Origin: Escherichia coli
GTDB taxonomy: Bacteria; Pseudomonadota; Gammaproteobacteria; Enterobacterales; Enterobacteriaceae
NCBI RefSeq assembly: GCF_044324785.1
Contig: NZ_CP172127.1
DNA: 64,000 nt
Strand: one strand, 5' to 3'
Shown piece after piece: positions 5,851 through 49,008 of the stretch (positions are counted from its first letter, which is position 1; each line of letters starts with the position of its first letter). The translations under genes and the position numbers were made by a program. Under the pieces are notes generated by a model that was not told where the DNA came from, made no database searches, and worked only from the letters and a program-made list of their open reading frames with translations.

Positions 5851-5882
5851 TTGGCTTCTGCTCCGGCAGAAAACAATTTGCG

Positions 5883-5909
5883 AAAAAACCCGCTTCGGCG
5901 GGTTTTTTT
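5883..5909 (+). terminator. intrinsic terminator of rplM-rpsI operon
   Basis: aaaaaacccgc-ttcg-gcgggttttttt: GC stem, UUCG tetraloop, T7 run. Confidence 0.85.
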
Positions 5910-43905: not shown

Positions 43906-44558
<653 letters not shown>

Positions 44559-44559
<1 letters not shown>

Positions 44560-44852
44560 TGAGCGAGTCACTGAGCTGGATGCAGACGGGTGACACACTG
44601 GCGTTATCCGGAGAGCTGGATCAGGACGTTCTGCTACCGCTTTGGGAAATGCGTGAGGAAGCGGTGAAGGGGATTACCTGCATCGATCTTAGCCGTGTGT
44701 CCCGCGTGGATACGGGTGGACTGGCACTGCTGCTCCATCTTATCGATCTGGCGAAAAAGCAGGGCAACAACGTGACGCTTCAGGGGGTAAACGACAAAGT
44801 GTATACCCTGGCGAAATTGTATAATTTGCCTGCTGATGTTCTGCCTCGTTAA
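44559..44852 (+). CDS. mlaB: STAS-domain protein MlaB
   Basis: ORF 44463..44852 trimmed to ATG 44559 (MSESLSWMQTGDTLAL), 97 aa; ATG overlaps mlaC TAA (taATGa). Confidence 0.9.
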
Positions 44853-45011
44853 ATTTTTTCAGGCCGGATATGGCGTTAACCGCCTGTCCGGCAATCCTGC
44901 CTGCAAGTCGAGCCTTGTCTGATTTATCAGCGAGGCTTTTTGCTTATTTATGCCAGCGCAACTTTGCTCTAAGATGTTTCGCTGGTTTATTAACTGATGA
45001 TTGAAGATCCC

Positions 45012-45266
45012 ATGGAAAATAATGAAATTCAGAGCGTGTTGATGAACGCTCTCTCCCTCCAGGAAGTCCACGTTTCCGGCGATGGCAGCCACTTTCAGGT
45101 TATTGCCGTGGGTGAGTTGTTTGACGGCATGAGTCGGGTTAAAAAACAGCAGACGGTCTATGGCCCGCTGATGGAATATATTGCGGATAACCGCATTCAT
45201 GCTGTGTCGATCAAAGCGTATACCCCTGCGGAGTGGGCGCGCGATCGCAAACTGAACGGCTTTTGA
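45012..45266 (+). CDS. ibaG: BolA-family acid-stress protein IbaG (YrbA)
   Basis: ORF 44997..45266; start at ATG 45012 ([33 protein letters not shown]), 84 aa. Confidence 0.88.
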
Positions 45267-45320
45267 GCTATGGGCGATTCGCCGGTAGCGGATATGAATT
45301 GTTAACTGAGAACAAACTAA

Positions 45321-46580
<1,260 letters not shown>

Positions 46581-46596
46581 TCGTCTGAGAGCTGGC

Positions 46597-46614
46597 AGCC
46601 CCGTTCGCGGGGCT
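46597..46614. terminator. UUCG-tetraloop hairpin between convergent murA and sfsB
   Basis: agccccg-ttcg-cggggct, 7-bp GC stem; no immediate T-run, so may act as an RNA 3' stabiliser rather than a classical terminator. Confidence 0.45.
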
Positions 46615-46627
46615 ACCGCCAGACCAC

Positions 46628-46906
46628 TCATTTTTTCGGTTTAGTGTAGCTACGCATCAACTGCGTTCTGTCGATAAACTCATGGGTCTGCGGATCATGG
46701 TAGCGTGATGGCCATATAACCCAGGGGTCAGTTCCCAGGGCTTTCGCAATAATCATCTCTCCTTTCGGCCATGGGCGCGATAATGCATTCGCCAGCGTTG
46801 AGGAACTCAAACCATTTCTGCGAGATTCCGCCGCCATTGACGTTCCCTTCTTGCGCAAACCCGCAATGATGTCAGCGGGATGCCAGTCAATGAAATTACT
46901 TTCCAT
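46628..46906 (-). CDS. sfsB: Ner-like DNA-binding transcriptional regulator SfsB (Nlp)
   Basis: 92-aa ORF MESNFIDWHPADIIAGLRKKG... with HTH. Confidence 0.92.
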   Translation of the reverse strand: MESNFIDWHPADIIAGLRKKGTSMAAESRRNGLSSSTLANALSRPWPKGEMIIAKALGTDPWVIWPSRYHDPQTHEFIDRTQLMRSYTKPKK

Positions 46907-47133
46907 CTTTCCTCACTCCTTAAGTTAGTCGCTTTCATTCAGAACACTTCTTCTGTCGGGCATCACTATACTCCTGATGGCGTATTGTTCTAAAAAGTTC
47001 CTGTAAAGAGTGTGAATATTCAGAATATATAAAGATGTACAGCCCTATTTTTCAGGTGTTATAGAGCTGAATAAGTGTTTTTATGGAATTTACTAGAACC
47101 ATCCCGCGCGCTGCGCGGGATGCGGGGAGGGGA

Positions 47134-48105
47134 TTAACGATCGCGTTGAACAGCGATATGCGCGAGGCCGATGAGTGCTTCTCGCCACGGGGTGTCCGGG
47201 AGCACCTGTAACGCTGCGATGGCTTTGTCTGCTTCTTCCTCGGCACGCTGACGCGTCCATTCAAGAGAGCCACAAGCGTTCATTGCTTCCAGAACCGGTT
47301 CCAGAAGATGACGACCGTTACCCTGTTCGATGGCGGTACGAATCATCTGTGCCTGTTCTGGTGTGCCATGATGCATTGCATGCAGCAGCGGCAGCGTCGG
47401 TTTACCTTCGTTCAGATCGTCGCCGACGTTTTTACCTAACTGTTCGCCATCGGCATTGTAATCGAGTAAATCGTCGATCAACTGGAAAGCAGTGCCGAGA
47501 TAGCGCCCATAATCCTGCAGGCCTTTCTCCTCCTCCGGCGTACAGCCAGCCAGAATCCCGGAACACTGCGCGGCAGCCTCAAACAGACGCGCGGTTTTGC
47601 TATAGATAACGCGCATGTAGTTTTCTTCAGTGATGTCCGGATCGTTAACGTTCATCAGTTGCAGAACTTCACCTTCTGCGATGACGTTTACGGCTTCTGA
47701 CATGACTTCCAGCACTTTGAGCGAACCGAGGCTGGTCATCATCTGGAACGCGCGGGTATAAATAAAATCGCCTACCAGCACGCTGGCGGCATTGCCAAAT
47801 GCGGCGTTGGCGGTAGCTTTACCCCTGCGCATATCTGATTCATCCACAACGTCGTCGTGCAGCAGAGTCGCCGTGTGGATAAACTCGATCAGGGCAGCAA
47901 TGGTGACATGCGCATTTCCCTCATAGCCAACAGCTCGTGCAGCCAGTACAGCAATCATCGGACGAATACGTTTACCGCCGCCGCTGACGATGTAATAGCC
48001 TAACTGATTGATCAGTTGGACGTCGGAATTAAGCTGCTCAAGGATTGCCGCATTAACACCCGCCATATCTTGCGCGGTTAACTCATTGATTTTTTCTAAA
48101 TTCAT
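47134..48105 (-). CDS. ispB: octaprenyl diphosphate synthase
   Basis: 323-aa ORF with polyprenyl synthase motifs DDVVD and DDLLD. Confidence 0.96.
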   Translation of the reverse strand: MNLEKINELTAQDMAGVNAAILEQLNSDVQLINQLGYYIVSGGGKRIRPMIAVLAARAVGYEGNAHVTIAALIEFIHTATLLHDDVVDESDMRRGKATANAAFGNAASVLVGDFIYTRAFQMMTSLGSLKVLEVMSEAVNVIAEGEVLQLMNVNDPDITEENYMRVIYSKTARLFEAAAQCSGILAGCTPEEEKGLQDYGRYLGTAFQLIDDLLDYNADGEQLGKNVGDDLNEGKPTLPLLHAMHHGTPEQAQMIRTAIEQGNGRHLLEPVLEAMNACGSLEWTRQRAEEEADKAIAALQVLPDTPWREALIGLAHIAVQRDR

Positions 48106-48327
48106 CGCAAAAGCCGGGCTTTTCGCCCCGATTACCTTACTGTGAACAAAGGCAACTTAGGGTTTATGGTTAGGAATATAGGGTGATTGTACTGAAAAAA
48201 TGGCACAGATAAACGTTACCGTACAAGTTGTGTTTTTTTTCTTCGTGTATTGACTGTAGCACTTGTCAAAGGCGTGCGTTTTGCGTAATATTCGCGCCCT
48301 ATTGTGAATATTTATAGCGCACTCTGA

Positions 48328-48953
<626 letters not shown>

Positions 48954-48980
48954 GTTTTTCGCGTCCCGGTAACGGATGAA

Positions 48981-49008
48981 AGCCCCGCAACACGTTGCGG
49001 GGCTTTTT
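48981..49008 (+). terminator. intrinsic terminator/attenuator after rpmA
   Basis: agccccgcaa-cacg-ttgcggggct stem-loop followed by TTTT. Confidence 0.8.

Follow-up and report, generated by a model that had tools for sequence, protein, structure and literature searches.

A GC-rich hairpin without a U-tract at the murA/sfsB convergent junction of Escherichia coli as a probable protective 3'-end stem-loop

Introduction

Transcripts of E. coli that are terminated by Rho have been found to carry precise steady-state 3' ends just past stable stem-loops that lack U-rich tails, and these ends arise when PNPase and RNase II cut longer primary transcripts back (Dar & Sorek 2018, PMC6061677). According to the same work, rut sites, with C in excess of G, lie just downstream of the protective stem-loops, and terminators could have switched type in evolution by the gain or loss of uridines (PMC6061677).

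Hairpins also take part in other kinds of 3' ends. Those capped by UUCG or GAAA have long been known from Rho-independent terminators (Tuerk et al. 1988; d'Aubenton Carafa et al. 1990; both cited in PMC3972237). Between convergent genes, overlapping bidirectional terminators have been described (Ju, Li & Liu 2019; Wang et al. 2022 preprint), a class reported as Rho-independent.

Here we have analysed a hairpin that lies between the convergent genes murA and sfsB in a stretch of E. coli DNA of 64,000 nucleotides, which we call the window. We have combined its predicted folding with published 3'-end and bicyclomycin data from K-12 and with the sequences of other E. coli strains and of related genera.

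Results

The murA/sfsB junction and its position in K-12

The murA/sfsB stretch was found, annotated with murA and sfsB, in 5425 of the 5426 complete E. coli genomes, and the 401 bases 46400-46800 are 100% identical to those of strain N3. The gene murA is essential and is the target of fosfomycin; sfsB is a poorly understood regulator gene, the homologues of which carry the name SfsB and the Pfam domain PF13693. The junction consists of the following features.

45321..46580, plus strand: coding sequence of murA (419 aa), which closes the ibaG-murA unit (ORF list; RefSeq annotation of E. coli records that match exactly or nearly so)
46628..46906, minus strand: coding sequence of sfsB (nlp), 92 aa, in convergent orientation to murA (ORF list; RefSeq annotation)
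46581-46627: convergent spacer between murA and sfsB, 47 nt

In K-12 MG1655, sfsB lies at 3334909-3335187 (+) and murA at 3335235-3336494 (-), and around the junction a window position equals 3381815 minus the MG1655 coordinate. This mapping was verified on the 61-mers printed in a published 3'-end table (PMC7815308 supp. 1), where the thrL entry confirms that each 61-mer has its reported 3' end at position 51. The offset between K-12 and the window shifts by ~1.8 kb between the end of rpsI (~5900) and that of murA (~46500), and K-12 therefore has ~1.8 kb extra somewhere between ~5900 and 46500.

At the other end of the unit, SMRT-Cappable-seq places the start of ibaG-murA at MG1655 3336832, that is, window 44983. 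Before it, a REP-like palindrome, GCCGGATATGGCGTTAACCGCCTGTCCGGC, lies within 44860-44941 and gives a weak naRNA4 match in Rfam (21.5 bits, below threshold); past this palindrome, a hairpin with a T5 tract forms a terminator after mlaB, with a Term-seq end at MG1655 3336874/3 (window 44941/2).

Structure of the hairpin

Folding of the spacer and its borders gives three nested structures.

46597-46614, both strands: inner hairpin, AGCCCCG-TTCG-CGGGGCT, 7 perfect pairs including 6 G-C, -12.8 kcal/mol on either strand
46592..46622, both strands: extended hairpin, by RNA folding
46586..46630, plus strand: predicted compound structure with a weak outer helix, UGAG 46586-89 / CUCA 46627-30

The loop of the inner hairpin is UUCG on the murA-sense RNA and CGAA on the sfsB-sense RNA. 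On the murA-sense strand, CUGGC (46592-96) pairs with GCCAG (46618-22) around an ACC bulge (46615-17), which brings the extended hairpin to 12 bp in total and to -20.5 kcal/mol (z -4.3), and the outer helix brings the compound stem to 16 bp, interrupted by the bulge and by an internal loop. The two strands are asymmetric across 46592-46622: the A.C mismatch that belongs to the ACC bulge of the murA RNA becomes a U.G wobble on the sfsB RNA, so that the sfsB-sense stem is continuous, with 10 bp, GGUAGCCCCG/CGGGGCUGCC, one U.G pair and -21.6 kcal/mol. When folded in context, the sfsB-sense structure (-31.7 kcal/mol, z -4.6) is also stronger than the murA-sense one (-25.0 kcal/mol, z -2.7).

An Rfam search of 44000-49000 at E<=10 returned over the hairpin only a chance-level match to the F6 sRNA (20.4 bits vs a gathering score of 46, E 4.1), and a known RNA family was rejected for it on this basis.

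Between ispB and sfsB, another GC-rich hairpin that lacks a U-tract, CATCCCGCGC-GCT-GCGCGGGATG, with 10 bp of which 8 are G-C, is seen at 47100-47122, 12 nt past the ispB stop on the minus strand. The tables of Adams et al. list no ispB 3' end; this hairpin is probably a protective stem-loop of the same class as the one proposed below for murA.

The UUCG loop

The original prediction had paired the murA/sfsB hairpin with the terminator of rpsI, as two GC stems that are both capped by UUCG, and the sequences at 46597-46614 and 5883-5909 agree with it.

5883..5909, plus strand: rpsI intrinsic terminator, A6-CCCGC-UUCG-GCGGG-U7, with a canonical C(UUCG)G tetraloop

The SMRT-Cappable termination site of rpsI, MG1655 3377755, was matched to a known terminator in that study. 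Against 200 dinucleotide-preserving shuffles of the 64-kb window, perfect hairpins of at least 7 bp with a 4-nt loop are seen 8 times vs 3.5 +/- 1.9, and those with a TTCG loop 2 times vs 0.035 expected (TTCG or CGAA loop), a number that none of the 200 shuffles reached. The paired observation is real and non-random.

The extra stability of a UUCG loop reportedly depends on a C-G closing pair. The rpsI loop has this pair, whereas the murA loop is closed by G-C, i.e., G(UUCG)C. ViennaRNA gives identical energies for the UUCG, UACG, and CGAA versions of the murA hairpin, with no special-loop bonus applied. The loop is likewise not conserved among relatives, since there are E. coli alleles with UACG and the loops of other genera differ (see below). 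Because the closing pair is non-canonical and the loop is polymorphic in E. coli and unconserved across genera, the UUCG aspect is not essential; it is incidental, a compact UNCG-type cap, and the mechanism discussed below does not require UUCG.

At rpsI itself, another UNCG loop is seen in a mini-hairpin, C(UCCG)G, formed by CUGC-UCCG-GCAG at 5858-5869, between the stop codon (5848-50) and the canonical terminator. The dominant Term-seq end of rpsI in LB at OD 0.4 (MG1655 3377788) corresponds to window 5877, 8 nt past the mini-hairpin and upstream of the terminator, while SMRT-Cappable-seq puts the end of the rpsI unit at the U-tract instead, ~5910. This suggests that the rpsI 3' end is processed.

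Absence of a U-tract

Another point of the original prediction, that no U-tract adjoins the murA/sfsB hairpin, holds on both strands. The tail on the murA-sense strand reads ACCGCCAGACC; that on the sfsB-sense strand, counted from the end of the extended stem, reads CUCUCAGACGA. A consensus terminator scan of both strands finds no terminator at the hairpin. Of the features of an intrinsic terminator, the GC-rich stem-loop is present (-12.8 kcal/mol for the 7 bp, -20.5 kcal/mol for the 12 bp that include the bulge), and a U-tract of ~7-8 nt starting 0-2 nt past the stem is absent from both strands. A stable stem-loop without a U-rich tail is the arrangement of the class of Dar & Sorek. Only one U-run is found near the hairpin.

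46631..46636, plus strand: T6 run, complement of the C-terminal Lys-Lys codons of sfsB

This run is separated by 16 nt from the inner stem and by 8 nt from the extended one, and it directly abuts the weak outer helix.

Mapped 3' ends of the murA transcript

Published tables place the end of the murA transcript just past the hairpin.

46619..46621, plus strand: steady-state 3' ends of the ibaG-murA mRNA, MG1655 3335196 and 3335194 (-) (PMC7815308 supp. 1, PMC6131387 supp. 3)

Adams et al. 2021 (eLife, PMC7815308 supp. 1) list a 'primary' murA end at 3335196(-) in LB at OD 0.4, with a mean count of 40640, and one at 3335194(-) in M63, with a count of 23548; in LB at OD 2.0 their table has no murA 3' end. 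By SMRT-Cappable-seq, Yan et al. 2018 (PMC6131387 supp. 3) report a unit from 3336832 to 3335194, b3190|b3189 (ibaG-murA), which is labelled 'novelTTS'. The murA ends at 46619 and 46621 are 5-7 nt past the inner stem, within the 3' arm of the extended stem and in the U-free tail ACCGCCA. Term-seq had been named in advance as the check for murA, and the outcome that had been named as refuting, transcripts that end well past the hairpin, is not seen in the published data. The precise 3' end that marks the class of Dar & Sorek is found for murA in two datasets. Neither PMC7815308 supp. 1 nor PMC6131387 supp. 3 has an end in the U6 run or a sfsB-strand end near the hairpin, and the murA/sfsB locus is absent from the TERMITe supplements.

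Rho-dependent termination downstream of the hairpin

Treatment with bicyclomycin (BCM) has been used by Adams et al. 2021 (PMC7815308 supp. 2) to define Rho termination regions, and these are seen past the hairpin on both strands.

46445, minus strand (sfsB-sense): peak of a Rho region, MG1655 3335370 (+), antisense inside murA, ~150 nt past the hairpin (PMC7815308 supp. 2)
46999, plus strand (murA-sense): peak of a Rho region, MG1655 3334816 (-), 'orphan', ~380 nt past the hairpin and beyond sfsB (PMC7815308 supp. 2)

The counts are 800-nt upstream/downstream values, the ratio is downstream/upstream, and each reported position is only the most significant point within +/-800 nt. At 46445, the counts are 119/12 untreated vs 161/127 with BCM (Rho score 7.8, p 9e-14), and the ratio rises from 0.10 to 0.79. 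At 46999, they are 105/25 untreated vs 119/142 with BCM (Rho score 5.0, p 1.8e-11), and the ratio rises from 0.24 to 1.19. Both scores, 7.8 and 5.0, have been reproduced from the printed counts by the formula in the Methods of PMC7815308. That is, when Rho is active the signal ends a few hundred nt past the hairpin on each strand, and when Rho is inhibited it continues near upstream levels, so read-through on both strands is bicyclomycin-sensitive. The Rho dependence that characterises the class of Dar & Sorek is seen on both strands, in reads that would be those of the murA and sfsB transcripts.

Since the bicyclomycin data place the Rho regions downstream of the hairpin on both strands, termination proper seems to occur further on than the hairpin, though these data do not measure release at the hairpin itself. 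In the 150 nt just past the hairpin, the sfsB-sense strand has a C/G ratio of 1.6-2.1 and is rut-like. The murA-sense strand has 0.65-1.3 for the first ~200 nt, which is not rut-like, and reaches 2-3 only at 46806-46955.

As a further observation, transcription in the murA sense crosses the whole of sfsB as antisense, and transcription in the sfsB sense likewise enters the 3' end of murA; mutual antisense or interference effects between the converging units are possible.

Variation of the hairpin within E. coli

The 60 nt at 46581-46640 are identical in ~4334 of 5425 genomes, and the remainder differ at 1-3 positions. The BL21-type allele combines a UACG loop, which is still UNCG, with G46589A, and is matched exactly in ~690 of 5425 genomes (~13%). 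G46589A costs the outer helix one G-C pair; this helix, UGAG/CUCA, is unconserved and is also altered in E. albertii. Two strains carry other single changes: in 2015C-3107, A46615G gives both strands an uninterrupted stem of 10 bp, and in 28Eco12, C46629T turns the sfsB stop from TGA into TAA. Overall, the stem is unchanged in every intact E. coli allele retrieved, and every E. coli allele sampled has either UUCG or UACG as its loop.

The exception to an intact hairpin is strain E20 (NZ_CP121147.1), where an IS150 sits exactly in the tetraloop (window 46604-46607) with TTCG duplicated at both junctions, which are positions 295-304 and 1741-1750 of the retrieved E20 sequence. This strain can be taken as a natural knock-out of the murA/sfsB hairpin. 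It is viable, and the intact hairpin is therefore not essential.

The same position in other genera

For the relatives, murA-downstream regions were taken from a genome scan and murA/sfsB spacers were obtained via SfsB homologues, and all of them were folded. The ispB-sfsB><murA synteny is kept across Enterobacteriaceae, and a strong GC hairpin follows murA in every genus examined, with differing sequence and loop. It starts ~10-25 nt past the murA stop in ten aligned short-spacer sequences (seven genera, with extra E. coli and Citrobacter alleles), and further out in longer spacers. Mean column identity in the alignment of spacers across genera is 54%. Because the hairpins are too divergent for a trustworthy alignment and a choice by their own stems would be circular, we have used per-spacer shuffle z-scores instead of covariation; the z-scores of spacer minimum free energy are mostly -3 to -5.7.

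Salmonella has the hairpin AACAACCCCCGCG...UGCGGGGGUUGUU followed by UUAC, and Citrobacter has UAACCCCC...GGGGGUUG/A; in these two genera, short U-rich tails come directly after the hairpins. The corresponding hairpins are AAGCGCCC...GGGCGCUU in Kluyvera and CGCCUCUUGCGCG...CGCGAGAGGCG in Pseudocitrobacter. Superficieibacter carries a version without UUCG, GCCCCGCGGGGC, in a layout like that of E. coli, with T6 from the sfsB Lys codons ~9 nt after the hairpin. Loops other than UUCG are found in Salmonella, Citrobacter, Kluyvera, Raoultella, Enterobacter, and Superficieibacter. The tails are U-poor in Escherichia, Raoultella, and Pseudocitrobacter. Canonical U-tract terminators, on the other hand, are found in Mangrovibacter (A6-CCGGGGAAUUCCCCGG-U7), Atlantibacter, Kosakonia, Cronobacter, Klebsiella sp. 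BIGb0407, Pantoea, and an Enterobacter sp.; several of the U-tract terminators in relatives also have an upstream A-tract, and those are therefore bidirectional.

Judged from these sequences, what is conserved is a strong hairpin at that position, not the UUCG loop or the primary sequence; a U-tract is present in some genera and missing from others. The series resembles the switch between terminator types by gain or loss of uridines that Dar & Sorek proposed. It is a clean example of terminator-type turnover at one position, from bidirectional U-tract terminators to U-free hairpins.

Discussion

A protective stem-loop as the preferred reading

The hairpin should probably be read as a protective stem-loop that defines the 3' end of the ibaG-murA mRNA, and probably that of the sfsB mRNA too, with Rho doing most of the terminating. 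We favour this reading because every testable feature of the class of Dar & Sorek is present here, i.e., the structure, the lack of a U-tract, the mapped end, and the Rho-sensitive regions beyond. It is also somewhat more probable than the opposite that the hairpin does not terminate efficiently by itself. The original prediction was that the hairpin, instead of terminating, may determine the stability or processing of the 3' end, and for murA this is supported by the ends at 46619 and 46621 and by the Rho regions downstream.

In the mechanism that we propose, RNA polymerase would pass through the hairpin, possibly pausing, and Rho would then terminate it in the next ~400 nt for murA-sense transcription, which is antisense to sfsB, and in the next ~150-200 nt for sfsB-sense transcription, which is antisense to murA. 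PNPase and RNase II would trim the unstructured tails in the 3'-to-5' direction until blocked by the 7-bp GC stem, which would leave the murA mRNA with an end 5-7 nt past the stem. The murA end would thus be made by trimming and not by direct release, and the sfsB mRNA would use the complementary hairpin likewise.

Alternative explanations

Several points stand against this reading. The distance of 5-7 nt between stem and end is also expected for hairpin-driven release, the murA-sense C/G ratio is not rut-like for the first ~200 nt, the two 3'-end tables give no sfsB end at the hairpin, and the downstream reads raised by BCM could partly be other antisense transcripts suppressed by Rho. It is conceivable that the hairpin is a non-canonical Rho-independent terminator, where either the GC hairpin releases the polymerase 5-7 nt on, or the compound hairpin with the U6 run terminates at ~46637-40 and the weak outer helices are trimmed afterwards. 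The typical stem-to-end distance of the murA end would fit, as would the predicted compound structure, which ends exactly at U6CGGUUU, and the relatives offer parallels: Superficieibacter repeats the layout with T6 ~9 nt after its hairpin, Salmonella and Citrobacter have their short U-rich tails directly past the hairpins, and those with longer spacers have canonical terminators at the same position. However, the RNA:DNA hybrid at the mapped end, ACCGCCA, is G/C-rich and unfavourable for release (PMC6061677), and no end in the U6 run appears in the PMC7815308 tables. G46589A disrupts the outer helix of the compound form in ~690 of 5425 E. coli genomes, and E. albertii has a changed version of this helix; the consensus terminator scan is negative, and the read-through downstream on the murA-sense strand is bicyclomycin-sensitive. 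We therefore regard this explanation as rather unlikely, although a partial contribution of intrinsic release is possible, as Dar & Sorek 2018 (PMC6061677) discuss for intermediate cases.

The convergent arrangement itself could point to an overlapping bidirectional terminator of the collision type, where the hairpin pauses polymerases from both genes, and head-on and trailing collisions release them without a U-tract or Rho. The genes are convergent, the single hairpin is readable on both strands and has no U-tract, and the murA end lies just past it, as predicted for a polymerase that has crossed the overlap. The class is described as Rho-independent, yet both strands are bicyclomycin-sensitive downstream, which argues weakly against it; moreover, there is no sfsB end in the two 3'-end tables to show an overlap, and the Wang et al. 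2022 preprint does not mention murA/sfsB. We consider such an origin quite unlikely. Still less credit, to the point of being highly improbable, goes to an end made by an endonuclease, with the hairpin as a processing site for RNase III, which would cleave the long imperfect hairpin or a sense-antisense duplex of murA and sfsB, or for RNase E. The spacer is transcribed on both strands, so a duplex could form, and the mapped ends are inside the 3' arm of the extended stem, but the compound stem, with its 16 bp, is short and has a bulge and an internal loop as interruptions, and the simpler model of an exonuclease barrier explains the same position.

Implications

The protective stem-loop may be extended to a more elaborate form, in which one hairpin is a shared, strand-asymmetric 3' module for the converging mRNAs, each gene has its Rho terminator inside or beyond the other gene, and the UNCG loop is kept by selection for exonuclease resistance or polymerase pausing. 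We find this very doubtful; if it were true, sfsB and murA transcription would interfere via collisions or antisense RNA.

As for murA, a 3' stabiliser could influence the dosage of MurA. The junction would follow the rule published for E. coli, by which an mRNA lacking an intrinsic terminator nevertheless ends at a protective stem-loop. Reading of the raw sequence can correctly tell a hairpin-only 3' end from a canonical terminator, and otherwise the case has little importance beyond bookkeeping.

Comparison with known systems

In searches for terminators of sfsB/murA or ibaG/murA, we have found no study devoted to the murA/sfsB hairpin. This reflects the ordinariness of the hairpin and not a gap, as the class is already known: protective stem-loops without a U-tract are established (PMC6061677), and the murA end already stands in two published tables.

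A comparison with extragenic REP/BIME 3' stabilisers shows the likeness of a GC-rich palindrome at a 3' end that is able to block exonucleases. Membership in these repeats was rejected, with a single copy (a median of 1 place per genome) and no REP consensus. The canonical C(UUCG)G intrinsic terminator, e.g., that of rpsI, shares with the murA hairpin a UUCG-capped GC stem that ends a transcription unit; unlike it, the murA hairpin has no U-tract or immediate upstream A-tract, its closing pair is G-C, and its end falls in ACCGCCA. With the bidirectional terminators of Ju et al., it shares a convergent gene pair, a short spacer, and a single hairpin with no resemblance to an intrinsic terminator, and it differs from them in the Rho-sensitive regions downstream on both strands.

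Overall, the closest likeness is to the protective stem-loops of Dar & Sorek 2018, a hypothesis of Peters et al. 2012: a stable GC stem-loop without a U-rich tail, an end just downstream, bicyclomycin-sensitive transcription beyond, an excess of C over G just downstream (on the sfsB-sense strand), and relatives with U-tract versions. What sets the junction apart from that class is that one murA/sfsB hairpin may serve two converging mRNAs, with each Rho region lying inside or beyond the other gene.
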